DNA of 64,000 bases, from contig CAYJKL010000004.1 of assembly GCA_964370755.1 (NCBI GenBank), positions 1,136 to 65,135 of the forward strand. Reading direction: 5' to 3'. The position numbers and the translations under genes were made by a program. This stretch comes from an uncultured Muribaculaceae bacterium (GTDB lineage Bacteria; Bacillota_I; Bacilli_A; RF39; UBA660). The notes under the pieces are model-generated. The model saw nothing but the letters and a program-made list of their open reading frames with translations. It was not told the DNA's origin and searched no databases. Positions 1 through 19,105 of this stretch are shown piece by piece (within the stretch, counting starts at the first letter, position 1; every line of letters begins with the position of its first letter).

Positions 1-84
1 TACAGTGAAAAAAAAGGCAGAAAGAACGCCTACTGATATTACTACAATTACAGTCACGTTTAAGTCTCCCGTTGCCTCTTTCAT
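1..84 (-). CDS. Pilin-like protein, paralog of 118..405; only the 5' end is in the window
   Basis: ATG at 84 with GGAG upstream. My translation of the reverse strand gives MKEATGDLNVTVIVVISVGVLSAFFFTV, nearly identical at the N-terminus to the 118..405 product. Confidence 0.5.
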   Translation of the reverse strand, partial: MKEATGDLNVTVIVVISVGVLSAFFFTV

Positions 85-117
85 ATTTATTCTCCTTCGA
101 AATTTTTTTTATGTTAC

Positions 118-405
118 TTATGGCGCGTCAGTTCCACCAGTACCACCAGTACCACCAGTACCTTCTGGACACGAAACATTTGTCTCATCAGTGTCAGTTG
201 CACCATTGCCATCTGCGTCATATGTACAAACTCTATCTGCACCTGTTCCCGTACAAGTACTTGCTATAGCACCATTACAGAACGTTGTTCTATTTAAACT
301 AGTTTGGATAGCTGGCCATACAAATGCGTAAAAAAATGCACCTACTGCTGCAATAGCTACTACTGTAACTACTGTCATATTTAATTCTCCTGTAGCTTCT
401 TTCAT
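118..405 (-). CDS. Candidate Flp/Tad-type major pilin (95 aa)
   Basis: Short charged leader MKEATG, then an acidic residue and about 22 hydrophobic residues. It lies immediately downstream of tadC-like and has RBS GGAGGA. The C-terminal part has 4 Cys and a GTGGTGGTGGT tail. Confidence 0.55.
   Translation of the reverse strand: MKEATGELNMTVVTVVAIAAVGAFFYAFVWPAIQTSLNRTTFCNGAIASTCTGTGADRVCTYDADGNGATDTDETNVSCPEGTGGTGGTGGTDAP
131..162. repeat. In-frame 9-bp tandem repeat (ccaccagta, about 3.5 copies) encoding the (GTG)n tail of the pilin
   Basis: Read directly: ccaccagta at 134-142, 143-151 and 152-160, with partial copies flanking. Confidence 0.9.
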
Positions 406-438
406 ATTCTAATATTCCTCCTTCTATTTTATATATTT

Positions 439-467
439 ATTATACCTAATATTTTATCAAATATCAA
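439..467 (-). promoter_or_regulatory. Sigma-A-type promoter dedicated to the pilin gene(s)
   Basis: Minus strand TTGATA (462-467), 17-nt spacer, TATAAT (439-444), in the 85-nt gap between the tadC-like stop and the pilin start. Confidence 0.45.
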
Positions 468-490
468 TGTTTTTTTTAATATTGTGTAAA

Positions 491-1279
491 CTAACCGTTC
501 ATCATTTGTAATACTGCTAATATTAGTAATATCATCACACCAAGTCCAGTCGCCATTAACATCTTCATTGTTTTTCCTTCCATCTTCTCAAGTCTGTTTT
601 TATACCTTGTATCTCTTGATTTTTGTTGTAAGCTTGATATTGACTTTGAAAATGTAAGCAGCTGTTCTTGTTTTCTTTCTTGTCTACCGAGTGATAGACG
701 GTAAAGTAAACGCATCATTCTCATAGAATCCCTTACTGGATACTTTTTAGCAAAGTTCATATATGGGTCAATTGAATCGTTTCCTGTATTAATTTCGATA
801 ATTAATTCCCTTAATCCTGGTCTAAATATTTCTGGCGCATCGTCTATTGATTTACCAAGAGCTACCGGTATTGTATAATGTTGTATTAATATCTCAATAC
901 TTTTTAAGTAATGAGGTAGCATTTGGTCAATATGAAACATGTTTCTTTTGTAAAAAGTTTTAAGCTGAGAATATGCTTGTTTAAAAATAAAGTAACCAGC
1001 TAGTAATGATATTACTATTGAAAGTGCTGAAAAATCATTTATAAAAAATAACATTGCGACTCCAGCCGCCATTAAACCATTTCTAATTCTTTGATTAAAT
1101 AATGTTGTAGAATTTACGTTATCGCCGTATCTTGCTCTTACATAAAATTCCCAATCTTCTTCTTTTAATCTTCTGAAAATTGCTTCGTTATCACTTACAA
1201 GTTGAGCAATACTTATTTGACCAGATACTGTCATTACAGTGAATATTATGGCTGCTATAATTACTATTTCAATTTGCAT
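491..1279 (-). CDS. tadC: TadC-like pilus assembly membrane protein (T2SSF-like)
   Basis: 262 aa with N- and C-terminal TM segments flanking a cytoplasmic helical domain. It is adjacent to and coupled with the tadB-like gene and the ATPase. Confidence 0.7.
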   Translation of the reverse strand: MQIEIVIIAAIIFTVMTVSGQISIAQLVSDNEAIFRRLKEEDWEFYVRARYGDNVNSTTLFNQRIRNGLMAAGVAMLFFINDFSALSIVISLLAGYFIFKQAYSQLKTFYKRNMFHIDQMLPHYLKSIEILIQHYTIPVALGKSIDDAPEIFRPGLRELIIEINTGNDSIDPYMNFAKKYPVRDSMRMMRLLYRLSLGRQERKQEQLLTFSKSISSLQQKSRDTRYKNRLEKMEGKTMKMLMATGLGVMILLILAVLQMMNG

Positions 1280-1281
1280 AA

Positions 1282-2187
1282 TTATTCGCCTCCTACATCT
1301 TCATTGTAGTATTTTTCCCCCGTTATTAAGAAATAACCGTTAACTAATAAAACAAAATGTAATATTATCTGAACATAAAAAGTCTCTATAAGTTCTAAGT
1401 AGTTATCTACACCAAACATATATTGAAGTGCAAGTACAAGTAAGAATAATATCATACCAAATCTAATAAATCTTCCGTGAAAATTCTTTCTATCTATTTG
1501 ATCTCGATAAACTCCCTCTACAAGTGCGTCTATATCCATTGACATATTTTCTAATGCTTGACCTGAATCCCTTGCTCCTTCTTTTGTAATTTGAAGAAAT
1601 AATTGATTCATGTTTTTCACCATATAAAACGGGTATTTTTCGTTGAAGTAAATTACTGATTCGTCAATTGTACCATTTTCATATGACATATCTATCATTC
1701 TTTTTACATCTGATAATACTGGATCTTCTAATATTCCTGAATCCCTAACTCCTTCGAGTGATTTTATGAAACTTTGAGTTGTATTAAACTCCATAATAAC
1801 GTTAGTAGTATAAATTTGTATTTGCTCAAATATAAATTCACTATATATTCTTTGACTTCTTAAATAAGATAGATAAGGAATAAAAGAAACAGCTAGCACA
1901 GCATAAACTATGCACAATATTAAACTATGAAAGTAAAAATATGATATTAATCCTGCACCACTTGCAAATATTATAACTTGCGTAGAATATTGTCTTGCCG
2001 AAAATTCTTGACCTAAAGCTTTAGTTTTTTCCCTTACTTCTTTATAAGAATATGGTGCGTATTTATCATACACTGTTGATACTCTATCTACTATAAAATT
2101 ATATATATTTTCACCAGGATTTAATCTGTAAAAAATCACAAATACAGTAATTACTAAGAGTATAACTAATTCTAAACTTGTTCCCAT
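1282..2187 (-). CDS. tadB: TadB-like pilus assembly membrane protein (T2SSF-like)
   Basis: 301 aa with the same TM-cytoplasmic domain-TM layout. It starts 12 nt after the ATPase stop. Confidence 0.7.
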   Translation of the reverse strand: MGTSLELVILLVITVFVIFYRLNPGENIYNFIVDRVSTVYDKYAPYSYKEVREKTKALGQEFSARQYSTQVIIFASGAGLISYFYFHSLILCIVYAVLAVSFIPYLSYLRSQRIYSEFIFEQIQIYTTNVIMEFNTTQSFIKSLEGVRDSGILEDPVLSDVKRMIDMSYENGTIDESVIYFNEKYPFYMVKNMNQLFLQITKEGARDSGQALENMSMDIDALVEGVYRDQIDRKNFHGRFIRFGMILFLLVLALQYMFGVDNYLELIETFYVQIILHFVLLVNGYFLITGEKYYNEDVGGE

Positions 2188-2198
2188 ATTATTCCTTT

Positions 2199-3317
2199 CT
2201 AAAGAGTTTCTAACTCTTCTAATTCATTTTGAATATTTTCTTTAGGTATTTTTGTATTAGTTGTTAAATTAAAAATATTATCTTTAAGTTTGACACCTTG
2301 TGCACCTAAATAGTCATGAAGTGCTTTTGATGGATTATTAAAATGATATTCTCCTCCGACACTTTTTTTGAATAATATATTTGCACATGCTTCATTTTCT
2401 TCTGATACATAAAATTCACATACTTCGATTATTTCACGCTGGAATCTTTCGTGCTCTGCACTATAATACCCTTTAACATGTATAGCAAGTTGTACATATC
2501 TGTGTATAGATTTTAAAAACTGATCAATATCTATATTATTTTCAAGCAAACTGTAAAGTCGCATTGGTACATTTCTAGCTCTATCTGAGTGGATTGTTGA
2601 TATGATATTGTGTCCCGATGATATTGAATTTCTTACGGCGGTAACCGCTTCTGCGGTTCTTACTTCTGAAAGTAAAATCCATCTTGGATTTTGTCTCATA
2701 CATGTAACTAGTACATCTGAATATGATGCAATATTATTTGTTTTCATCGCGACTATATCTCTATGCGGAAATATTTTATCAAGATGAAGTTCTAGTGTAT
2801 CTTCTATTGTAATTATTTTTTCGGTTTCACCAGTATGTGATGTTAAGTATTTAACAAGTTCTGTTTTACCTGAACCAGTTTCCCCACTTACTATTATGTT
2901 ACAGTGTCCTTTAACACATGTAATTAAAAAGTCATGAAGTTCTTCTGTAACATATTTTTCAGAAAGTAATTTGTCTTTATTTAATCTTATCTTTGCTGGA
3001 GTTTTACGTATAACACATGCTACTCCATTAGTTGCTATTGATTCATGCACAAAGTTAAGACGAAGCTCAGAACTTTCAGCATCTAAAAAGGGATGCGCCA
3101 TATTAAATGTCGTACCCATTACGTTTGAACACTGGAATGCAAGTTTTTCTAAAAGAGCGTTATTTATATCTGAACGCTCTATTCTATAAACTCCTTTATC
3201 TAGTGTCTTTAAATGTATTTGTCCATTATTTCCATATGAAACGTCTGTTACGTTTTCATCCTCTAAAAATTCTGTTAATGGTCCAAAATCTAATTGTGAA
3301 AATATTGCATCATTCAC
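2199..3317 (-). CDS. cpaF: CpaF/TadA-family type II/IV secretion ATPase
   Basis: Walker A GETGSGKT, followed by the ITIEDTLEL and RQNPRWILLSEVR blocks typical of T2SSE/VirB11-like ATPases. Confidence 0.9.
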   Translation of the reverse strand: MNDAIFSQLDFGPLTEFLEDENVTDVSYGNNGQIHLKTLDKGVYRIERSDINNALLEKLAFQCSNVMGTTFNMAHPFLDAESSELRLNFVHESIATNGVACVIRKTPAKIRLNKDKLLSEKYVTEELHDFLITCVKGHCNIIVSGETGSGKTELVKYLTSHTGETEKIITIEDTLELHLDKIFPHRDIVAMKTNNIASYSDVLVTCMRQNPRWILLSEVRTAEAVTAVRNSISSGHNIISTIHSDRARNVPMRLYSLLENNIDIDQFLKSIHRYVQLAIHVKGYYSAEHERFQREIIEVCEFYVSEENEACANILFKKSVGGEYHFNNPSKALHDYLGAQGVKLKDNIFNLTTNTKIPKENIQNELEELETL

Positions 3318-3339
3318 AAAATCACTCCCTTTTTATTTT

Positions 3340-4131
3340 TTAATCTGATACTGTATTTGTTTTGATTTCAATGTATGTTTTTATTGTTTGACTTGTTACC
3401 GTTGTTTCACCTTCAGAATCTGTATAGTTACTGTTACGTGGAACTGGTATTATTTCCAGTCCGCTTATAAAACTTGCTTGAGTCAGTAGGTTAAATAAAT
3501 TTTTATCATCATCTGAAGGATCGTCCGGTACTGCGAATAACAGTAGTGCTGATTGTCCTGTTTCAGTATTTTCAAATACATCTTCTTGTGATGAATCCCT
3601 AACTGCTAACACTTCTATTTTTTCGATAAACTTACCAAAATTTATTTCTCCTAAGTCATCTGTATATTTGATATATAAATCTATTCTATCTCCTGGATAA
3701 ATTGAGTTACCATAAGTTGAATTATTATTTACCGGTAAAGAAAATAGTGTATAACCTTCTGGTATATCATCAAATACTGCATTAGGTAATTTACTTTTTT
3801 CAACCACCTGAGTTTGATAAAAGAACCCTGACTTAGGTATTGATGTTCCTGTTGTTATGTATTTTCCTACTAATTCATTTACATTTGTCATGATTGGAAT
3901 TGTGGATAACATTCTTTGATTTATTTCTACGTAACCAATGTTATCTTGAATTATTTCCTCTGTTGCACTAATTGCTTCAAGTGCATAAGGAACTGTTGTT
4001 GGCGCAATAGCATCATTAACCCTCATATTATAAAAGAACCATAGTACTATTACTCCAGCAATTACTCCAAGGATTGTAACTGTATTTTTATTAGATATAA
4101 ATCTTTTAAATCCGCCTAGTATATTCCCCAT
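3340..4131 (-). CDS. CpaB/RcpC-like pilus assembly protein (N-terminal TM, SAF-like domain)
   Basis: N-terminal TM segment. The pattern EGYTLFSLPV...IYPGDRIDLYI resembles the CpaB family, and the gene sits directly upstream of the ATPase. Confidence 0.6.
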   Translation of the reverse strand: MGNILGGFKRFISNKNTVTILGVIAGVIVLWFFYNMRVNDAIAPTTVPYALEAISATEEIIQDNIGYVEINQRMLSTIPIMTNVNELVGKYITTGTSIPKSGFFYQTQVVEKSKLPNAVFDDIPEGYTLFSLPVNNNSTYGNSIYPGDRIDLYIKYTDDLGEINFGKFIEKIEVLAVRDSSQEDVFENTETGQSALLLFAVPDDPSDDDKNLFNLLTQASFISGLEIIPVPRNSNYTDSEGETTVTSQTIKTYIEIKTNTVSD

Positions 4132-4149
4132 ATTATTTCATTCCTTTCA

Positions 4150-4560
4150 TTATTCTATTGCTTCTCCTTCAAGTATTGCATCTACAGTATCGACAATATC
4201 AAATGTTTCAGTATCACCTGCTACATTAAATGAACTAGATTTACTTGAGACTTTAACACTGATTTTTGGCGGAGCTTCATATATTTGATAAAATTCAATA
4301 TCATATGTTGTTCCTCCATCGCTAGATTCTGCCATTCTTCTTAAAAAAGTTTCAATAAATTTTTCTTTATTTATTCTTAATTCTCCATATTCTCTATAAT
4401 AAGCATAATCTACAGAATCTACCATTGCAGCTTCCGAAATTTCCCTTACCATTGTATTAGTAATAGTATTACTGTTAGTTAGATTTTGAACTAACAGCAT
4501 TACTACCACAACAAATACTCCTAAAATTATTAACCAATATCCCCAATAAGCATTACTCAT
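4150..4560 (-). CDS. Membrane-anchored hypothetical protein (136 aa) in the Tad operon
   Basis: One N-terminal TM helix and an acidic C-terminus. It starts 13 nt after the 1149-aa gene stop. No family recognised. Confidence 0.5.
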   Translation of the reverse strand: MSNAYWGYWLIILGVFVVVVMLLVQNLTNSNTITNTMVREISEAAMVDSVDYAYYREYGELRINKEKFIETFLRRMAESSDGGTTYDIEFYQIYEAPPKISVKVSSKSSSFNVAGDTETFDIVDTVDAILEGEAIE

Positions 4561-4572
4561 TTATAAAACCTC

Positions 4573-7500
4573 CTATTTCCATGCTGGTCCACCTATAGTA
4601 GACTCTGTTATCTGATTGGGAATTCCCGTTACAAAAAGTTCCCAATAACTACTCGGATCATCTCTATTTATTTGATTGTCATCAGCATCTTTTCCATACT
4701 GGAATTTATCTTTGTGCTCGTCGCTTGTAATCCATTCGCCTAGCGGTTCACTATAGCATAGTAGGTTTTTATAAGTAATTCCATCTACTTTTGCGTTTTG
4801 ACAGTCAAGAGAATTATTTGAGTAACCACCACCTTGATCTTCAACTGTATCAGAACTATTGTAGTTCTTTATTGTATTTACGAGCGCTGGGTCGAGTGTT
4901 ACTGTTAAAAACGGCGTTTCAGCATATATTGCATTGCCTTCAGCTAGTATTCCAGTACTATTTTCATCAATTATCAGATTTCCTGAATTATCAACTCCTG
5001 TAATACCTAGTGTTTTTTGTGCTTTAAGCGAAACAAATCCGTACTTGGTATCTGTTGTATAATTGTAATTCCAGTTATACCCAAGTGGTCTATTATTTGG
5101 ATTAAATGCATCTGGTGAGTATGTTCTATAAACTAAGTTGACTGTTACATCGAATTTACAAGTTGGACAGTAAGGATCTGGTGTATCAAAGTTTCCTTCG
5201 ATATTAATATCACATTCTGGACAATTTATTGGAGCATAACATACATATTCTCCTGTAAATGTGTCTTCTTTTTCCATTACATCATCTACTGATTGATCCG
5301 ATTTATCGTCACCTTTATCCACTAATCTTCCAGTTTCATCACATTCTTCGCTGTAATATTCTCCTAGATTATCAATATTAATTTTATATGTGTATGCACC
5401 ATTTACTGTAGGTCTCATTTCTGTAGGCAAACCGTCTACTACTATCGATTCATCTGTTGCTTCATAAACTATATTTCCATTAGGTACTAGTTGATAATAA
5501 TTTCTTTCGGTTTGATATTTTTCATTATCTGACATAGTCCATTTAATATAATTAGATGTACCTATTGTTATATATTCTTCTGGAAGAGAACATCCTGAAG
5601 TACTACAACTTAGGTATTTGACTTGTTTTGATTGAGCAGTGTAATTTGTAACTAAATTTCCACTACATGTATTATATTCATTACTTCCCAAAGCTCCATC
5701 ACAGTACCATTTTTCTACTGTTGTGGGAGTATTTGTTGTTGATACCATTTCATCTTCAACTTTACTTAAATCATAATATTCTGAATCATATGTATAAGTT
5801 AGTGTTGGATTAAGTTCATAATTAACTGTCCACGTTGAACAAGCTCTGTAATCGCTTATTAATGCGTTAAGTTGATTTTGAAGACTTGTTATTTTTATTG
5901 CTGCGGCTGATGCTGTTGTTTCATAATCGGCTGCCACACTAGTTTGTGTAGTATTTGAACTACAACCCCCTGCAGAAGCTGGATATACTTCACTACTTGA
6001 AGTTGATATTGTAGCCTCCCCATATTCACCAAATGTTATTGAATAGTGTGTATATGTTCCTGAAGAACTATACTTTGTCTTTGATGAAGGTATAGGAAAT
6101 AAACTGCATATCTCCACAGTACCTGCATCATTTTTTAATGAAGTTGCTGTATTGATATTTTTATTATATATATTCATTTGATTAATTAATTCTGTTTGAA
6201 TTGTTTTAATATCACTAACATATTGATCTATTTTAATTTCGCTTGTGTAACATGTTTTTACTCCATATACACTTGCATCTATATTAAAATACCTAGCATT
6301 ATTTACATTTTTTACTGCAGGGAATTTTAAACTATAATCTTCTTTACAGTATACTGCGCAGTAATTATTATTTACTACGGAACCGCCTGATTCAGTTTTT
6401 ATTATACCTGTTTCGCAAGTGTTTTTATATGAATTGCCACCATCATCTAATTTATCAGACCAGGTAGTATCACTTACATTGTCACCTGTTACTGTTGTGG
6501 TTGGAGTCCCTGTAATACATCCTACTATATCAAATGGGTCTTTTACATCAAAATCACCAGTAGAATTTTGATCTATCCATTCATTATCTTCATCTATATC
6601 TGATGGATTTATACAGTAGTTTGGTACTGTTATTTCATTCTTACACATATCTGGACATATTTCAACTTGAGTTGATAAACTTCCATCTATTAAATCTGTA
6701 CCTGTATCTGATCCTTCGTCTAGAAATACTGCAAATGTCTGAACTGCTCCAGTACCAGATAAATACAGAACTTCTGAAGGACTTACATTACCGTTATAAG
6801 AATAATTTATTGTAAAATGAGCGGGTGGACATTCACCATCTGGTATGTTATATACTAATTTGAAATTAATTTCTTTTATAGTATCAAGCGATATGTGTTT
6901 AAGTGCTTCTTCTGCTGCCGCAGTGCTAGTGTATGTTACTTTTGATTCGTCTTTTTTTACAATATCTATATTCATTGTTACTATATTATGTACTTGTGTT
7001 GTGATATAAAGTTTTTGTATATAATTATCACTTTCAAAGTTTGTTGGATTTAAACTTGCTTGAACAACAGATTGTTTTAGTGTTTCATCCACTACATTTG
7101 GTCCTAGTTCATTAACAAATGATGGTGCAGCCGTTACTGAACTACCGTCTTTTTCTTGTTCAATTAAACGAGCTTCTTCTAAAGCAGCATTGATGCCTTT
7201 ACTTATTAATAATTGAATAATAAATGTAAAATAGTTATTTTGATATAAATCATATTTATATCCACCACTTTCCCAAATAGGTGACCCAGATTCATTTAAT
7301 AAAGCACTATGAAAGGTTTTACCAGGGTTATACCAACTTCTTGTTGAGTTAAAATCTTCTTTCATAATATTTACTAAATTTGATAAATCATCAATTGGTT
7401 TATCTGTCATGAATTGTGTTAAATATTTAACATCTTCTTTTTGTTCTGCTGTTGTACTAGGATCATTTGCTATAAACGCCAAATATCCTAGTGCGAAGTC

Positions 7501-8022
7501 TACGTGGGCAGAAGCTGTTGTGCTCCATGTTGAATAACTAGAATCATTAAATATACCAATATAATAGGCTCTTATAGCAACTGATGTAACAAGATATAAT
7601 TCATCATCAGTTAAGGAATAGTTTTTGCCATAAAATTCGAAGTTTTGACTTTCCCCTTGCTTGCTGCCTCCTAAACCGTATTTTAAGATTTCCGCTACTC
7701 CAGCATCCCTAATTCTAGTTTCTTCAAAAGTAACTCCAAAATCATGCTGTTTTAAGTTGTAACCTGACGCGGCTGCTCCAGGATCCAAACAATATGCTGG
7801 TTGATCCAACCATGTACCTATGCTTATTTGATATCTATTTGTTCCATATCCTGACCCAATAGACGTTGCGCTACCGGTGTCTCCAATATTTATTAGTTGA
7901 GTTGTCTTATTACCATAACTTTTCCAAACAGGAGTTTCGTTTATTTCAATGGCATTAACATCATGACTTATAAGTAAAATTGTTAACAATAAAAATAAAT
8001 TATATATTTTAATTTTTTTCAT
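4573..8022 (-). CDS. Large secreted Cys-rich protein (1149 aa), function unknown; candidate pilus-associated adhesin
   Basis: Signal peptide ending HDVNA/IE. Many Cys, including CPECD...CPTCK. No LPXTG motif and no C-terminal TM. The start overlaps the upstream gene by 14 nt. Confidence 0.75.
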   Translation of the reverse strand: MKKIKIYNLFLLLTILLISHDVNAIEINETPVWKSYGNKTTQLINIGDTGSATSIGSGYGTNRYQISIGTWLDQPAYCLDPGAAASGYNLKQHDFGVTFEETRIRDAGVAEILKYGLGGSKQGESQNFEFYGKNYSLTDDELYLVTSVAIRAYYIGIFNDSSYSTWSTTASAHVDFALGYLAFIANDPSTTAEQKEDVKYLTQFMTDKPIDDLSNLVNIMKEDFNSTRSWYNPGKTFHSALLNESGSPIWESGGYKYDLYQNNYFTFIIQLLISKGINAALEEARLIEQEKDGSSVTAAPSFVNELGPNVVDETLKQSVVQASLNPTNFESDNYIQKLYITTQVHNIVTMNIDIVKKDESKVTYTSTAAAEEALKHISLDTIKEINFKLVYNIPDGECPPAHFTINYSYNGNVSPSEVLYLSGTGAVQTFAVFLDEGSDTGTDLIDGSLSTQVEICPDMCKNEITVPNYCINPSDIDEDNEWIDQNSTGDFDVKDPFDIVGCITGTPTTTVTGDNVSDTTWSDKLDDGGNSYKNTCETGIIKTESGGSVVNNNYCAVYCKEDYSLKFPAVKNVNNARYFNIDASVYGVKTCYTSEIKIDQYVSDIKTIQTELINQMNIYNKNINTATSLKNDAGTVEICSLFPIPSSKTKYSSSGTYTHYSITFGEYGEATISTSSSEVYPASAGGCSSNTTQTSVAADYETTASAAAIKITSLQNQLNALISDYRACSTWTVNYELNPTLTYTYDSEYYDLSKVEDEMVSTTNTPTTVEKWYCDGALGSNEYNTCSGNLVTNYTAQSKQVKYLSCSTSGCSLPEEYITIGTSNYIKWTMSDNEKYQTERNYYQLVPNGNIVYEATDESIVVDGLPTEMRPTVNGAYTYKINIDNLGEYYSEECDETGRLVDKGDDKSDQSVDDVMEKEDTFTGEYVCYAPINCPECDINIEGNFDTPDPYCPTCKFDVTVNLVYRTYSPDAFNPNNRPLGYNWNYNYTTDTKYGFVSLKAQKTLGITGVDNSGNLIIDENSTGILAEGNAIYAETPFLTVTLDPALVNTIKNYNSSDTVEDQGGGYSNNSLDCQNAKVDGITYKNLLCYSEPLGEWITSDEHKDKFQYGKDADDNQINRDDPSSYWELFVTGIPNQITESTIGGPAWK

Positions 8023-8743
8023 TTGATTTCTCTCCTATTTTTTTTCTGAATATAATTAAAGAACCTAATAATAATACTACAACAATTATTATTACAATTA
8101 GTAATACGTTATTACTATCATGACTTTCTTCGGTTTCTTCAGCGTCATCTTCTGTCTCAAATTTTTCTTCTTTTAGATCATCTAATTTTTGATAAAAAGA
8201 ATCAGCGGATAAGTTTTCGTTAGTAGTAAATTCTTGACATATTGGTTCATCTTTAAAATCCAAACATTCATCTCTACCACTATACATGTTATATTTTGGC
8301 GTTGTTAAATAAAAAATTTTATTATTCTCGTTAGGGCAGCCTGTTATATCTGAAGTTTTAACTGTAAAAGTATATGTTATTACTTCATTATCATTGTAAC
8401 CTTCCATTGCATATGTTCCTTCAACAAAATCTGTATATAATATAGTTTTTACCTCTGTATTATAATCATTAGTTACTTCTATAGTAAAATTATCTGTCAT
8501 ATTTAATACATTAATACTAATATATGGAACAAATAATTTATAGTCTTCAGCTTCCTCTTCTGTTAAATCTTCTGGTGGTTCGTACATACTAGGATCCAAT
8601 TCTAATTGTAGTATTTCATAATCCACCTTTATTAAATTTGCCTCTGTTTTTAACTCCGATTGCTCCTCTACTGAGCATGCAGAATTTGCATTTACTATTA
8701 GTGGCATTGTTAATAGTAAAAAAGTATATAGTATTTTTTTCAT
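8009..8743 (-). CDS. Secreted acidic protein with a C-terminal TM anchor (244 aa); first gene of the Tad-like operon
   Basis: Signal peptide (LIVNA/NS), an acidic ectodomain, a C-terminal hydrophobic helix and a basic tail (FRKKIGEK). Confidence 0.65.
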   Translation of the reverse strand: MKKILYTFLLLTMPLIVNANSACSVEEQSELKTEANLIKVDYEILQLELDPSMYEPPEDLTEEEAEDYKLFVPYISINVLNMTDNFTIEVTNDYNTEVKTILYTDFVEGTYAMEGYNDNEVITYTFTVKTSDITGCPNENNKIFYLTTPKYNMYSGRDECLDFKDEPICQEFTTNENLSADSFYQKLDDLKEEKFETEDDAEETEESHDSNNVLLIVIIIVVVLLLGSLIIFRKKIGEKSNEKN

Positions 8744-8864
8744 TTAGTTATATCCTACCTTTCTAAATAATTTTAACATAATATATTATTAATTTCAACA
8801 CTCTAATTGTATATTTAGGAAATTTATGGTATTATATTTTTATACTACGAGAGGAAGTTTTCTT

Positions 8865-9677
8865 ATGAAAAAAATTATCATTGTTGTTTTACTTTTATTT
8901 ATTTTATTATTTTTATATACGAGATATGTAGAACTATATCAAATAAATGTAAATGAATATACTATTGAAAATTCTAATATACCGGTTTCTTTTGATGGAA
9001 TTAAAATTGTTCAATTTTCTGATACTTTAATTAGTGAAGTTTATACTTTAGAGCACTTTGAGAAAATAGTTAACGAAATTAACTCTTTAGATGCTGATAT
9101 TGTTATTTTTTCTGGAGATTTAATTGATGATAATTATAAACTAAGTGATAGTGATAAAACTAAATTAATTAAGTTATTATCTAGTATTAAAAGTACCCAA
9201 TTTAATTTTGCTATAGTTGGCGATAATGATCAAAAGATCATTACAGATTATAGTGATATAATGAAGCATAGTGAATTTATTTTGCTAGATAATAAATCTT
9301 ATCCTTTATTTTACAAAGATAACTCACCTATTGTTTTAACTGGTTTAACAGATACTAGTAATTTAACTGAAAGTTATAAAATAGACGATACTATAGATAG
9401 TACTTACAGCATTACTCTAATGCATAAACCTGATGATGCTAGTAAAATTATTGATTATACTGATTTAGTACTTGGGGCACACTCTTTAGGCGGATATATT
9501 AATTTACCTTTTATCGGTCCTGTACTTGAAAAAGATGGAGCCACTAAGTATATTAATGGTTATTATAATTTAAATGATACCCCGATATACGTTAGTAATG
9601 GACTTGGTACTGAGAATACTCACCTTAGATTTAATAACTCTCCTTCAATTAATTTATATAGATTAAAAGTTAGCTAG
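8865..9677 (+). CDS. Membrane-anchored metallophosphoesterase (YkuE-like)
   Basis: Motifs FSGDLID, VGDND and GAHSLGG. I moved the start to MKKIII, which has a GAGAGGAAG RBS. Confidence 0.8.
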   Translation: MKKIIIVVLLLFILLFLYTRYVELYQINVNEYTIENSNIPVSFDGIKIVQFSDTLISEVYTLEHFEKIVNEINSLDADIVIFSGDLIDDNYKLSDSDKTKLIKLLSSIKSTQFNFAIVGDNDQKIITDYSDIMKHSEFILLDNKSYPLFYKDNSPIVLTGLTDTSNLTESYKIDDTIDSTYSITLMHKPDDASKIIDYTDLVLGAHSLGGYINLPFIGPVLEKDGATKYINGYYNLNDTPIYVSNGLGTENTHLRFNNSPSINLYRLKVS

Positions 9678-9726
9678 TATAACTTTTTTTTATTGGTTAA
9701 TAATATTTATGAAAGGATTGATATAT

Positions 9727-9936
9727 ATGGGTAAAGTACCTAAAATGATTTCTACTAAAGATTTATCTTATATAAGTGATATGTTTAACTGGAATATGAT
9801 ACTAGTTAATAAACTTAATTTATTTTTAGAAGAAGTTACTGATGAAGAAATGAAAACATTATTTAGTAATGCTCTTGATATGCATACTAAGCACGCTAAT
9901 AATTTAATTGGAATTTTAAAAGGAGGTAATGAGTAA
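9727..9936 (+). CDS. Small helical protein, possible CotF-like partner
   Basis: Start MGKVPK follows AAAGGA. The stop overlaps the next start as TAATG. Confidence 0.45.
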   Translation: MGKVPKMISTKDLSYISDMFNWNMILVNKLNLFLEEVTDEEMKTLFSNALDMHTKHANNLIGILKGGNE

Positions 9937-10196
9937 TGGATGAAAAATATTATCTATTTGATTTACTAGCTAGCGAAAAGAATATGGGAGTTAATATGGC
10001 TACTGCTATAAATGAGGCAAGCTGTGATTATTTATATAAAAAATATATGACAATGTATAAAGAAGTTAGTGAAATGCAAAAAGATTTATTTAACTATGCT
10101 TATTCTTCAAACTTTTATACACTTGAAGAAGCAGATTCTAAGAAATGTCAAACTGAGGTTGATAAAATGGAAAGTGAAATGAATAACTCAATATAA
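9936..10196 (+). CDS. Coat F domain (CotF-like) spore coat protein
   Basis: DLLASEKNM...AINEASC...pattern typical of the Coat_F domain. RBS AGGAGG lies 9 nt upstream. Confidence 0.6.
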   Translation: MDEKYYLFDLLASEKNMGVNMATAINEASCDYLYKKYMTMYKEVSEMQKDLFNYAYSSNFYTLEEADSKKCQTEVDKMESEMNNSI

Positions 10197-10630: not shown

Positions 10631-13511
<2,881 letters not shown>

Positions 13512-13512
13512 T

Positions 13513-14412
13513 TTAATTCTCCCATAAATTTCTTGGATATTCTCCAGCTTCTATCATTTTATTTATTTCACTTTTGAACCCTTCTAAATCTTCTTTATAT
13601 GTAATTCCCATCCATTTTGAATCTGTAATTACTTCGAATAACTTAATTTTTTCTTTTTTTATGTATTCATTTAAGAATATTGATAATAAACACTCGTTAG
13701 TGTCATTTATATTTTTTAGGAATTCTAAATAATATTCTTCTAAATGTTTAAATATTGAAGTTTTATAAACAAAGAAATTCATTGAACATCCCATATTACC
13801 ATCTACTTCAAATAATTCTTCTTTATCTAGTTCTTTAGCTATGTATTTACCATTTTCTTCTTTTATTACTGATTCTAGTACATTATTAAGGTTTCCTTCA
13901 TTATCTTTATAACAAAGACCTCTTTTAACTTCAAGTGCACCACTTGTAACATTTTTAAGTGGATAATTAATCGTTAAATGTGTATCTTCGTTTAAACTAA
14001 TGTCCATAAATGCTGATGCACTTTCTAAAGCTTTTTCTCCATAAAAGTCATCTGCATTAAGTATTCCAAACGTTCCATCTATAACATTTTTTGCACAAAG
14101 TAATGCATGCACTGTACCAAGCATTTTTGTTCTTGTTTCAGGTATCTTATATTCTGGATATATTTCATTTAACTCTTGAAAAGCAAATGCAATTTCTACT
14201 TTATCTTTATATTTACTAACTATTTTTTCTTCAAAAATTTGCAAGTGCTCTCTTCTAATTATAAATACTATTTTTGTAAAACCATGCTTAATTGCGTTAT
14301 AAATATTGTAATCACTTATTATTTCTCCACTTGGTCCTACTGGTTCAAGTTGTTTTATTCCTCCAAATCTTGATCCCATTCCTGCTGCTAATATTACTAG
14401 CGTCTTTTTCAT
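13513..14412 (-). CDS. Sugar-phosphate nucleotidyltransferase-fold protein (paralog 1)
   Basis: The same AAGMGSRFGGIKQ motif. There is a 1-nt gap to the next paralog. Confidence 0.7.
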   Translation of the reverse strand: MKKTLVILAAGMGSRFGGIKQLEPVGPSGEIISDYNIYNAIKHGFTKIVFIIRREHLQIFEEKIVSKYKDKVEIAFAFQELNEIYPEYKIPETRTKMLGTVHALLCAKNVIDGTFGILNADDFYGEKALESASAFMDISLNEDTHLTINYPLKNVTSGALEVKRGLCYKDNEGNLNNVLESVIKEENGKYIAKELDKEELFEVDGNMGCSMNFFVYKTSIFKHLEEYYLEFLKNINDTNECLLSIFLNEYIKKEKIKLFEVITDSKWMGITYKEDLEGFKSEINKMIEAGEYPRNLWEN

Positions 14413-16579: not shown

Positions 16580-18586
16580 TTAGTTATTGTAATAATATAT
16601 TATTTGAACATCTGAAAAATTTCCATCTAATTTGAGGTAACTATCTATTTTTGTCAAATCTATGCTATCTTTAGTATCGTTTAAAAACTTAATTATGTCA
16701 TTATATTCTGTTGTCTCAAAATATATTTCTTCAGTCTTTGGATTTATAATTGTAAATGGTTTATCAATATCTACTACTATTCCAGGTGTGCTTATTAGTC
16801 CGTTTACTGAGTATGTTGGAATTATTTCTGCTATATCTTCTGTAATATCCTTTAACACTTCTGTTAATTCTTCTGAACCAACACTTGATTCATAATATAG
16901 TTTTTCCCCCTCATCATTTTCGCTTGCAAAATTTTTTAAAAAAGATGAGTTTACAGAATCACCAAGTCCAATAGTATATAATTTATTTATATATTCACTT
17001 TTTAAAGTATCAGCTTCTGTAGTACCATCATTTGAAGATCCATCACTTAAGAATATTACAAAAGAGTTTTCTTTATTAAATTCTTCTGGAGCTCCTTTTA
17101 TTACATTTATTGCTTCTGACAACCCACTAGAAAAACTTGTTCCTCCTGATGCATTCATGTCATTTACTATATCGATTACATCATTTTTATCTTCTAAATA
17201 TTCTCCTGCGGTATGAGCTGAAGAGGAGAATATAACTACAGAAAATATAGTTCCTGGTACATAATCCGTATTATCCATCAATACTTTTACTGCATTTTGT
17301 AAAGCATCTAGACCTCTTCCAGCCATACTTCCTGAATCATCTAGCACAAATACAATATGGGATTTTCCAACAGTATTCATATTGTCTTCGTTATATTTAA
17401 TTAAATTTATACTACGGTCATTAAAATTATATTTTGCAGTAAGCGTTATATTTTCAGTTATGTCTTTTGAACTTACGTCTTTTGAACTTGTAATTTTGTT
17501 TCCTAATTCATCATACCATCCATCAAATGTATATCCGTTTTTTTGTGGTATTGAAAGTGGTATATTTGGATCATTTTTATCAAATAATTTTGTTTCATCT
17601 TCAAATTGAGGATTGTCATAAATTATAGTTATTTTTCCTATATCCATTTCGCTTTTATATTTGTTTCCAACATTATCTATTGCGCATAAATACTGAATTC
17701 CTGTAGTGGTTACACTTATGCTTGATGGTAGTGTATCATTTTCATTAAATGTACAGTCTTCATCTCCTAATTTATAACTTTTAAGTCCTGAACCTACATC
17801 AGATACTTTTATTTCTAGTTCTTGAGTTTCGTCAGTGCTTATTTTTTTTGATGTTACTATAGGAGCTGCTTTATCCACTCTAATTCTAGAATCTGTTACA
17901 AACTGATAATCTTTTTCTTCGTGTGTATATTCTAAAGTTACATAAAAATATGCGTCTAATACATCCGTAGGCATTTCAAAAGTTATTTTTTTTCCATTTT
18001 CTAAACTTTCTGTATTCATGTAATATCCATGGTCACTATACCAAGTTAGTTTTACGTTTGTCGCGGTATTTAAATGCTCATTTATCTCTGTTCGATTTAT
18101 TTCTAAATTAAGTTCATTTAATGTTCCGAGCCAATTTTCACATTCTTTTCCATCACATTTTATTTTTATATCATCTTCTTTTGCTTCAAAATATTCGCAT
18201 GAAAAATCCAAATCTTTACTTTCAATTTCGTCTTCATTTTCTAAAGTTACTATGTACTCTCCGTCTTTATATTCTATTTTATACATTAAACAATTTAATT
18301 TTTTTGAATTATCTCTTGGGTCATATATAAAACCATCTGAGTCATCAGCTATAATGTAACCGCCTTTAATTAGTTCATCAATTGTTACGTATGTTATTTT
18401 AGATGTAGCATTTTCAAAAGCAAAAGTTTTAGCTTTACTTTCAATATTCGTAAGTATATTTGTTAGCTGGTTATCTTCTATATCTCTTTTTATGCTAAGA
18501 AATGAACTCGCTGCTATACTAACTATAATAGCAAGCACAATTATTACCGCTAGTAGTTCTGTTAGTGTAAATCCTTTATTATTCAT
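16580..18586 (-). CDS. Modular type IV pilin-like protein with a C-terminal von Willebrand factor A domain
   Basis: Class III prepilin signal MNNKG/FTLTELLAVIIVLAII. It also has a GYTFDGWYDELGN repeat (Listeria-Bacteroides type) and the vWA MIDAS motif VLDDSGSM. Confidence 0.8.
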   Translation of the reverse strand: MNNKGFTLTELLAVIIVLAIIVSIAASSFLSIKRDIEDNQLTNILTNIESKAKTFAFENATSKITYVTIDELIKGGYIIADDSDGFIYDPRDNSKKLNCLMYKIEYKDGEYIVTLENEDEIESKDLDFSCEYFEAKEDDIKIKCDGKECENWLGTLNELNLEINRTEINEHLNTATNVKLTWYSDHGYYMNTESLENGKKITFEMPTDVLDAYFYVTLEYTHEEKDYQFVTDSRIRVDKAAPIVTSKKISTDETQELEIKVSDVGSGLKSYKLGDEDCTFNENDTLPSSISVTTTGIQYLCAIDNVGNKYKSEMDIGKITIIYDNPQFEDETKLFDKNDPNIPLSIPQKNGYTFDGWYDELGNKITSSKDVSSKDITENITLTAKYNFNDRSINLIKYNEDNMNTVGKSHIVFVLDDSGSMAGRGLDALQNAVKVLMDNTDYVPGTIFSVVIFSSSAHTAGEYLEDKNDVIDIVNDMNASGGTSFSSGLSEAINVIKGAPEEFNKENSFVIFLSDGSSNDGTTEADTLKSEYINKLYTIGLGDSVNSSFLKNFASENDEGEKLYYESSVGSEELTEVLKDITEDIAEIIPTYSVNGLISTPGIVVDIDKPFTIINPKTEEIYFETTEYNDIIKFLNDTKDSIDLTKIDSYLKLDGNFSDVQIIYYYNN

Positions 18587-18667: not shown

Positions 18668-19105
18668 CTAACAAACGCATTCAACGTATGTATCTGTTAA
18701 ACACCTTAAAGAACATAAACAGTCTGTATTCATAGTGAAGAAAGATGTTGTTGCTACATAAGGATTTAAGCTAGTTGTATCTGGATTTGGAATAAGCACT
18801 CTAAATGTTGCACAGTTACAATCTATTTTTTCTACTCTAAATACTGATGAGCAGTCAGAAGTTATTCCTTGTCCTCCGCAGTCTGTAGTTGTATCCTTAG
18901 AAACAGGCATTGACCATGGTGTTCCATTGCCACAGCATGTATATAACATTACCGGTCTAGTATTACATACTAAACAGTTTGGACCTCCACCTAGTAGTGG
19001 TCTATCACAAGTGTCCATACAGTTTTCTGGACAAGCATTTTCTTGAAGCACTAAGATTACATTTAAGATATCTGTAATACAGCTTGAATTTTTTGTATCG
19101 TTCAT
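18668..19105 (-). CDS. CotY/CotZ/ExsY-family Cys-rich spore coat or crust protein
   Basis: About 20 Cys in 145 aa. The ITDIL..IL.LQE...C...NTRPVMLYT pattern is typical of the CotZ/CotY family. Confidence 0.65.
   Translation of the reverse strand: MNDTKNSSCITDILNVILVLQENACPENCMDTCDRPLLGGGPNCLVCNTRPVMLYTCCGNGTPWSMPVSKDTTTDCGGQGITSDCSSVFRVEKIDCNCATFRVLIPNPDTTSLNPYVATTSFFTMNTDCLCSLRCLTDTYVECVC

Follow-up and report, generated by a model that had tools for sequence, protein, structure and literature searches.

A 64,000-nt stretch of contig CAYJKL010000004.1, from an uncultured bacterium of the GTDB lineage RF39 (the window below), opens with a minus-strand operon at positions 1-8743. With a probability that we put at about 0.6, this operon encodes a divergent Tad-like (type IVc-like) pilus of a monoderm bacterium, which carries a variable cysteine-rich adhesin. 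An earlier analysis made without database searches (hereafter, the sequence-only reading) had described the locus as a secretin-less monoderm variant of the Tad system with three leading genes that could not be assigned. The monoderm Tad variant is supported: CpaF is the nearest solved ATPase, a match to RcpC runs through the whole family of the CpaB-like protein, no secretin was found and the surroundings appear to be those of a walled spore-former. Judged by comparison with related sequences, the three leading genes (the trio or cassette below) are a real conserved addition to the operon.

Eight complete open reading frames (ORFs), all on the minus strand, lie between 118 and 8743 according to both the ORF listing and direct reading. 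In the order of transcription, they encode a secreted acidic protein of 244 aa with a signal peptide, a C-terminal transmembrane (TM) segment and a pI of 4.1, which is the first gene of the cassette (8009-8743); a secreted Cys-rich protein of 1149 aa with a signal peptide and 25 cysteines (4573-8022); a 136-aa DUF5411 (PF17424) protein with one N-terminal TM helix (4150-4560); a CpaB/RcpC-like protein of 263 aa with an N-terminal TM segment (3340-4131); a CpaF/TadA-like secretion ATPase of 372 aa with the Walker A motif GETGSGKT (2199-3317); two polytopic membrane proteins, presumed platform subunits, of 301 aa in the TadB position (four hydrophobic segments; 1282-2187) and of 262 aa in the TadC position (three hydrophobic segments; 491-1279); and a 95-aa pilin-like protein, pilin 1 (118-405), in which MKEATG/ELNMTVVTVVAIAAVG... 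is followed by a small Cys-containing C-terminal part. The ninth ORF, pilin-like gene 2, starts at position 84 of the same strand, begins MKEATGDLNVTVIVVISVGVLSAFFFTV... and leaves the window at base 1, so that only its 5' end of 28 codons is present (1-84). A single hydrophobic segment, at the N-terminus, is present in each of the 136-aa, 263-aa and pilin products. Thus, of the nine co-directional genes of the sequence-only reading, eight are confirmed as complete ORFs and the ninth is truncated, and since it is cut by the start of the window, the operon is incomplete here. Spacing is tight, although the range of 2-22 nt or overlaps given before widens to -14 to 33 nt on measurement; the exception, the 85-nt gap ahead of the pilin 1 gene, stands. 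The G+C content of positions 1-8000 is 30-33%, against 24-28% in most of the remaining window. Recent horizontal acquisition of the operon, considered on account of this slightly raised G+C, was rejected because the flanks keep their synteny across the lineage.

To place the locus in a wider setting, one genome per species was scanned with a DUF5411 alignment. A DUF5411 relative was present in at least 194 genomes, and 78 loci were returned and annotated with the window proteins and the proteins of three further loci. The related loci are from uncultured gut metagenome-assembled genomes labelled Bacilli bacterium, Mycoplasma sp. CAG:472, Tenericutes, Erysipelotrichaceae and similar; one related protein carries the name Candidatus Onthocola. 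Each core protein has thousands of metagenomic homologs, and for the 262-aa protein public data hold more than 6,600 with 65-100% identity. The gene order is conserved. A Metallophos gene and a gene for an Rce1-like CPBP protease come first, on the opposite strand, followed by the genes for the 244-aa protein, the large Cys-rich protein, DUF5411, the CpaB-like protein, the ATPase, the ~300-aa and ~262-aa membrane proteins, pilin 1 and pilin 2. After pilin 2, the relatives encode two proteins of ~140-190 aa, a protein of ~330 aa and one to three PF18895 (T4SS_pilin-like) genes, with tight intergenic gaps throughout the operon. The ATPase is present in 59 of the 64 loci with at least 3.5 kb downstream of DUF5411, in accordance with which the trio and the machinery travel together in the great majority of genomes, a point that the sequence-only reading had proposed to survey. 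Where at least 9 kb follow DUF5411, the first minor-pilin-like gene is found in 42/49 loci and the 330-aa gene in 39/49. In the closest relative, the machinery is 87-90% identical to that of the window, and genes of 155, 150, 337 and 120 aa follow pilin 2.

No member of the minor-pilin, 330-aa, PF18895-type or Rce1-like families was found in the 64-kb window, and the absence of all the downstream families fits an operon that runs on past base 1. Window positions 1-8743 would then represent the front two-thirds of an operon of 13 to 15 genes. The sequence-only reading had recognized neither pseudopilins nor a ParA-like TadZ. This holds for the window, but the closest relative and most of the related loci that are long enough have two minor-pilin-like paralogs just beyond the equivalent position, and then a ~330-aa gene whose product is modelled with a ParA/MinD fold. 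Because these dedicated genes directly follow pilin 2, both absences appear to be largely an effect of the window edge. Our guess is that P0126, a 337-aa protein encoded on a 9.4-kb NCBI contig and 79% identical to the 337-aa protein of the closest relative, may be this genome's own copy. Further downstream, most relatives encode two-helix membrane proteins of 107-514 aa in one to three co-directional genes after the operon (median gap 71 nt; for example, L003 10879-11241 and L004 5258-5650), which match T4SS_pilin PF18895 with E-values down to 5e-7.

The ATPase contains a T2SSE domain (Pfam, E = 4.8e-29) in addition to the Walker A motif GETGSGKT, as is expected of a TadA/CpaF-type ATPase of a Tad system. 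Among solved structures Caulobacter CpaF is nearest (1.3e-18), followed by archaeal FlaI and VirB11. The CpaF/TadA label given from the sequence alone is supported. In NCBIfam the order is different, with VirB11 scoring best (111 bits, cut-off 250), followed by the conjugal-transfer-associated TadA family and TrbB, all below their cut-offs. The length of the ATPase varies between 360 and 532 aa in relatives (e.g., L001 7716-9086), the differences being due to a low-complexity, Asn/Gln/Pro-rich C-terminal tail found in only some of them and not in the 372-aa version of the window. The 263-aa protein on its own matches RcpC (E = 1.2e-5) and TIGR03177 (E = 2.2e-6) below the curated cut-offs. At the level of the family the picture is clear: SAF is matched by 10/40 members and RcpC by 40/40, and because all 40 orthologs match RcpC the CpaB/RcpC assignment is sound, in agreement with the CpaB-like call made before. 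Among the operon products there is no secretin (RcpA) domain, as had been noted and as is expected for a monoderm.

The two polytopic proteins encoded after the ATPase belong to well-conserved families, with mean column identities of 74-78%. A profile of the 262-aa protein, scanned against 1.84 billion representatives, retrieved 619 relatives; T2SSF was not found in the 10 remote relatives scanned in Pfam. Three remote relatives (P0357, P0359 and P0380) are 486-613 aa long. For two of these, P0359 and P0380 (496 and 613 aa), the 301-aa profile aligns to the N-terminal half (hhalign 48-67%), and the C-terminal half is the part that matches the 262-aa family. Because the two proteins are apparently fused in these distant relatives, they probably make up a single unit, the arrangement of PilC/GspF. 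AlphaFold gives an all-helical model for the 262-aa protein (pLDDT 70), and the only specific pointers obtained from it, both at non-significant E-values, are the cytoplasmic domains of OutF (5nbg; probability 0.91, E 0.93, TM-score 0.48 on the target) and EpsF (3c1q). Position, topology and conservation suggest that the 301-aa and 262-aa proteins are equivalents of TadB and TadC.

The pilin-like proteins are very short, 73-100 aa, and full-length orthologs of pilin 2 in relatives are 73-97 aa. Pilin 1 is 60% identical to its counterpart in the closest relative; across its family, M1, E7, L8, F25, P31, C43 and C79 are invariant and K2, E3, A4, T5, G6 and C60 nearly so. Four pilin-like families, namely, the two pilins and the two proteins encoded after them in relatives, share an N-terminus in which M-[KR]-E-x-x-G precedes a hydrophobic helix. 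This leader occupies residues 1-6 in 50/53 members of the pilin 1 family and in 34/45, 46/49 and 30/39 members of the other three. This N-terminus is not that of Flp pilins: in MKEATG/ELNMTVV the glutamate is at +1 rather than +5, and there is no tyrosine. The archaeal Pilin_N model is matched weakly by 5 of the 46 pilin members. The two post-pilin proteins are paralogs (hhalign 100%, E 5.6e-47), and they are probably prepilin-like minor subunits, since they have the leader and the hydrophobic helix in common with the pilins. TadE models are blind to these families, which have only weak Pfam matches to DUF4320 (4/40) and Tad PF13400 (2/40) and none in NCBIfam or PDB.

The maturation of these proteins would call for a prepilin peptidase. 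The GxGDxK motif is absent from the window and the related loci except for three chance matches (L007, L055 and L069) that do not fall in any plausible peptidase. None of the polytopic ORFs of the window contains GxGD or GxAD, and all of these ORFs except the two presumed platform proteins and one of 120 aa have other Pfam assignments, for the most part to functions in cell-envelope polysaccharides. In known systems, tadV may be encoded apart from the Tad locus (PMC6668835). An A24 enzyme is likely to be present elsewhere in these genomes, because the window encodes a canonical prepilin, with the N-terminus MNNKG/FTLTE, that needs one. In this stand-alone modular type IV pilin of 668 aa (16580-18586, minus strand), the leader MNNKG/FTLTELLAVIIV (N_methyl, E 1.5e-5) is accompanied by a vWA domain (E 6.7e-19) and a Listeria-Bacteroides repeat. 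Its gene is flanked by that for a UvrD/PcrA-like helicase on one side and a Cys-rich ORF of 145 aa on the other, no pilus machinery adjoins it, and similar prepilins are encoded near the locus in two relatives. A second protease was also considered. In 44 related loci, a divergent Rce1-like CPBP intramembrane protease with intact EExxxR, FxxxH and HxxxN motifs is encoded between Metallophos and the 244-aa gene (e.g., L001 616-1290 and L006 5325-5945, both minus strand), and in L054 it is still adjacent despite a rearrangement. In the window, Metallophos (8826-9677) directly abuts the operon and there is no Rce1-like gene in the 64 kb. The Rce1-like protease was set aside as the missing peptidase, given that the unrelated Metallophos is equally conserved beside the operon and that the protease is absent from the window.

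The ~330-aa family of the relatives has no sequence match in Pfam, NCBIfam or PDB, and hhalign detected no relation to E. coli MinD. In an AlphaFold model from 63 homologs (pLDDT 74.7), a disordered linker connects two alpha/beta domains. With Foldseek, the model matches HypB, ParA, MinD, UreG and FlhG at E-values of 1e-5 to 5e-3, as well as full-length TadZ of Eubacterium rectale (3FKQ; E 1.6e-3, probability 0.95). The P-loop position, a degenerate Walker A in the C-terminal domain, reads HAGSTT where ParA proteins have GKT, and thus the lysine is missing. This is in line with the atypical Walker A of TadZ (PMC6668835). The model suggests that the ~330-aa protein is TadZ-like in architecture.

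The cassette at the head of the operon combines two highly variable proteins with a conserved one. Relative to the closest relative, the 244-aa protein is 41% and the 1149-aa protein 34% identical, whereas DUF5411, at 89%, evolves as slowly as the machinery. The 244-aa gene is found in 52/52 loci with enough upstream DNA. Its product has four invariant cysteines and a TTPRYNxY motif, and no match in Pfam, NCBIfam or PDB. A word-indexed homolog search with the 1149-aa protein found only the protein itself, and its relatives were gathered by synteny. A large Cys-rich ORF of 720-1972 aa fills the slot after the 244-aa gene in every locus. None of the 38 members of the family has a match in Pfam or PDB, and the 1149-aa protein itself has none in NCBIfam and contains no wall-anchor motif. 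Its N-terminal ~450 aa are the most variable part, and residues 450-1149 hold 23 of the 25 cysteines as well as conserved blocks. The C-terminus, GP[AS]WK (codons at 4573-4590), is conserved: G1145 is invariant, and P1146, W1148 and K1149 are nearly so. Even among the 16 large ORFs missed by phmmer, which have 20-86 cysteines, 15 end in an aromatic residue followed by K or R, mostly as GP[AS]WK. Because this terminus is near-invariant in a family with a mean column identity of otherwise ~17%, it suggests a recognition or docking signal.

The third member of the trio is no longer unassignable: DUF5411 covers residues 1-132 of 136, in effect the full length (E = 4e-51, 172.9 bits, cut-off 30), and has no PDB match. 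It begins MSNAYWGYW (MKESYWGYW in the family consensus), in loose resemblance to the pilin leaders (MKEAIGGTW in the minor pilins). As regards the other two leading genes, the sequence-only reading was right that they resemble nothing known. Its profile check likewise came out in favour of a distinct identity: neither DUF5411 nor the 244-aa protein proved to be an ordinary homolog of TadE/F/G or TadZ. Six loci (L009, L041, L047, L048, L055 and L062) have tandem duplicates of the trio ahead of a single set of machinery genes. We infer that the trio is a fixed cassette in which the variable members face outside and are tied by DUF5411 to the filament or the conserved machine. The accessory roles that had been proposed for the leading genes are therefore to be divided. 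Replacement of TadZ or of minor pilins is not supported, given the dedicated genes of the relatives, but a role as tip, adhesin or cargo remains plausible and is strengthened, because the trio is always present, is duplicated as a unit and has two hypervariable members. Extra or orphan copies of the trio exist as well (L013, L021 and L079), and in Mycoplasma sp. CAG:472, one of the orphan cases, a sortase gene comes directly after the cassette.

Both promoter-like sites named by the sequence-only reading exist, and one of them is in the 85-nt gap. This site, TTGATA-17-TATAAT (439-467, minus strand), is 33 nt upstream of the pilin 1 gene. Among 40 related loci, it is exact in 28 and matches at 10 or more of 12 positions in 37, always ~30 nt from the start codon, while the spacer varies from 47 to 177 nt. 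Since the site is kept at a fixed distance from the start codon despite the variable spacer, it is probably an internal promoter boosting pilin expression, for which the comparative evidence is good. The site ahead of the operon, TTGAAA-17-(TGT)TAAAAT (8770-8798, minus strand), precedes the 244-aa gene by 26 nt. Taken alone, it does not exceed chance in AT-rich DNA, as promoter-like sites in the region are at chance level (52 found versus 54 expected). A similar site, TTGnnA-17-TGn-TAnAAT, is present ~25 nt from the start codon of the 244-aa gene in about half of 30 related loci.

If the locus encodes a Tad-like pilus, the pilin-like proteins would be cut after Gly6 by an A24 prepilin peptidase encoded elsewhere, and the ATPase and the platform would polymerize them into a thin pilus crossing the wall without a secretin. 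The large Cys-rich protein, exported by Sec, would be the variable surface-binding part, with a variable N-terminal and a conserved C-terminal half. DUF5411, with its pilin-like N-terminal helix, would connect the large protein with either the conserved machine or the tip of the filament, and the membrane-anchored 244-aa protein would be a co-varying partner of the large protein, either holder or chaperone. Such a pilus would be adhesive, and its tip or cargo protein would diversify rapidly.

Several observations weigh against such a pilus. The 301-aa and 262-aa proteins have no sequence match in Pfam (T2SSF), NCBIfam or PDB, hhalign detects no paralogy between their families and Foldseek yields no significant match for the 262-aa model; the labels TadB-like and TadC-like, assigned from the sequence alone, are thus without support from profile hidden Markov models for either protein. 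Flp_Fap is matched by none of the 46 pilin members, there is no G/XXXXEY motif and the pilin products of the window have no match in Pfam, NCBIfam or PDB. Peptidase A24 was found neither in the 64-kb window nor within 10 kb of any of the 78 loci, so the sequence-only reading was correct on the lack of a prepilin peptidase here, which extends to ±10 kb of every related locus, and cleavage of the pilin-like proteins after Gly6 is assumed. The likeness of DUF5411 to pilins amounts to 21 aligned N-terminal columns, with an hhalign probability of 21% against the minor pilins. The cassette or DUF5411 occurs with no machinery nearby in L013 and L021 (Mycoplasma sp. CAG:472) and in the extra copies L052 and L079. 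Finally, the downstream genes are known from relatives and not from this genome, and the whole account is drawn from genes and models.

The explanation that competes best, although we consider it unlikely, is a type II secretion-like system. Here, a short MKEATG pseudopilus would push the Sec-exported 1149-aa protein, and perhaps the 244-aa ectodomain, through the wall, and the large protein would be released cargo. Such a role would suit a protein that has its own Sec signal peptide, lacks a wall-anchor motif and is always encoded with the machine, and DUF5411 operons of Clostridia have been classed as secretion-related (Miller et al. 2022, PMC9523054). However, the strong and conserved promoter of the pilin genes fits a bulk filament subunit, and CpaB and TadZ-like components are parts of Tad systems of the pilus type. 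That the large protein is hypervariable also fits a surface-exposed binder, yet it does not separate tip from cargo.

Less likely still is that the leading trio is a self-sufficient surface-protein module, co-transcribed with the pilus genes or parked beside them with no physical link. In L013 and L021 the cassette is intact with no machinery within 9 kb, extra copies such as L079 are on other contigs and the 244-aa and 1149-aa proteins are devoid of pilin features. By contrast, the 244-aa gene and the large ORF precede DUF5411 in all 52 loci and the ATPase accompanies them in 59/64, the gaps between the cassette and its neighbours are -4 to about 20 nt and DUF5411 keeps the rate of the machinery rather than that of its cassette partners. 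Moreover, an orphan cassette does not preclude a complete locus at another place in the genome (L078/L079 and L052/L059).

We regard as improbable, and more so than the preceding explanations, that the system is a separate branch of type IV filaments, with a platform unrelated to T2SSF, pilins matured by CPBP/Rce1 and a DUF5411 adaptor recognizing the GP[AS]WK terminus of a hypervariable, metal- or disulfide-stabilized giant protein, which would be mounted or exported. A Gram-positive conjugation-type (type IV secretion) apparatus or a DNA-uptake pilus, in place of a Tad relative, is very improbable and was rejected for want of partner genes: the VirB11, conjugal-transfer TadA and TrbB scores of the ATPase in NCBIfam and the one to three PF18895 T4SS_pilin genes after the operon in relatives speak for it, but no VirB4, VirD4, VirB6, relaxase or ComEA/ComEC-type match was found among the operon products and the downstream proteins of three related loci, CpaF is the nearest solved ATPase, CpaB/RcpC and prepilin-type N-termini are features of type IV filaments, and the locus is chromosomal and syntenic across the lineage, with no megablast match of the region to plasmid sequences.

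The Tad-like pilus that we favour resembles most closely the secretin-less Tad systems of monoderms, such as those of Bifidobacterium breve and Bulleidia extructa, with Caulobacter Cpa as the structural reference. Shared features are the CpaF/TadA-type ATPase, the CpaB/RcpC-type protein, two separate membrane proteins encoded after the ATPase, very short pilins and the lack of a secretin; in relatives, these are joined by two paralogs resembling minor pilins and by a two-domain protein whose model has a ParA fold and whose Walker A is atypical. The differences lie in the pilins, which have a 6-residue MKEATG leader and Glu at +1 instead of the Flp motif, and in the profiles, since the Flp_Fap, TadE, T2SSF and TadZ models recognize no component of the system. 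The gene order differs as well, with the three-gene cassette leading the operon. The canonical monoderm Tad operon of Bulleidia starts with tadV (PMC12786226), which is missing from the locus described here. Because the test for the Flp motif failed and T2SSF, TadE/F and TadV are unconfirmed, the system, which in kind would be a type IV filament, is most simply filed beside the secretin-less monoderm Tad pili, as a variant rather than a member.

The closest published trace of the system is in Clostridia. Operons combining DUF5411 with a CpaF-like ATPase and a PilC-like protein were described in Roseburia, Ruminococcus and Eubacterium as uncharacterized and secretion-related (Miller et al. 2022, PMC9523054), and we found no other trace in the literature, nor any literature on DUF4320 or on RFN20 pili. 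Compared by description only, the operons share DUF5411, a CpaF-like ATPase, a PilC/GspF-like membrane protein, unannotated genes and Gram-positive gut hosts. Those of Clostridia comprise 8-9 genes, among them a single PilC-like protein of ~434 aa and an internalin-like protein, whereas the system described here is found in uncultured Bacilli and combines a split pair of membrane proteins with a CpaB-like protein and the Cys-rich family of 720 to 1972 aa.

Tips of type IV filaments can be built of minor pilins and a large non-pilin adhesin, as in PilY1/PilC with PilVWX-FimU, or of modular pilins, as in Streptococcus sanguinis PilB with its vWA module. The likeness to such tips would be in the possible mode of working, namely, a large variable binding protein encoded together with small pilin-like adaptors and shown on the filament. 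No relation in sequence or fold was found; the large protein here is an orphan Cys-rich protein with its own Sec signal, and its coupling to the filament is conjectural. Archaeal type IV pili (Epd/Aap-type), which are the proposed ancestors of Tad, have in common with the system an ATPase that matches FlaI and archaeal GspE-like proteins, paired platform proteins and the weak Pilin_N matches of 5/46 pilins. They differ in that the hosts here are bacteria, a CpaB-like protein is present and the leader lacks the basic residue usual before Gly in archaea.

The operon is among the most conserved large gene clusters in a big group of uncultured gut Bacilli. Some contigs of 1.0-1.2 Mb suggest that the genomes of the lineage are very small, and the retention of ~13 kb in reduced genomes points to a central role in attachment to the host, to mucus or to other microbes. 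The locus is also a test case for the drift of type IV filaments, having no Flp motif, a platform invisible to T2SSF, a TadZ-like protein without the P-loop lysine and no peptidase found at the locus. It provides a context and a testable role for Pfam DUF5411 and for two orphan protein families.

The remainder of the window contains further genes of interest. At 9709-10196 (plus strand) and 18668-19105 (minus strand), a Coat_F spore-coat gene (E 8e-12), a DUF3231-like fragment and the 145-aa Cys-rich ORF point to a spore-forming host. In relatives, spoVA and sigma-factor genes are found near the locus. At ~31000-53500, the minus strand carries a long co-directional block that includes cell-envelope polysaccharide genes, encoding a Polysacc_synt membrane protein, two O-antigen-ligase-like proteins, a glycosyltransferase 4, an acyltransferase, GtrA, UbiA and an ABC-2 transporter. 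Two tandem NTP_transferase paralogs are encoded at 12618-14412.

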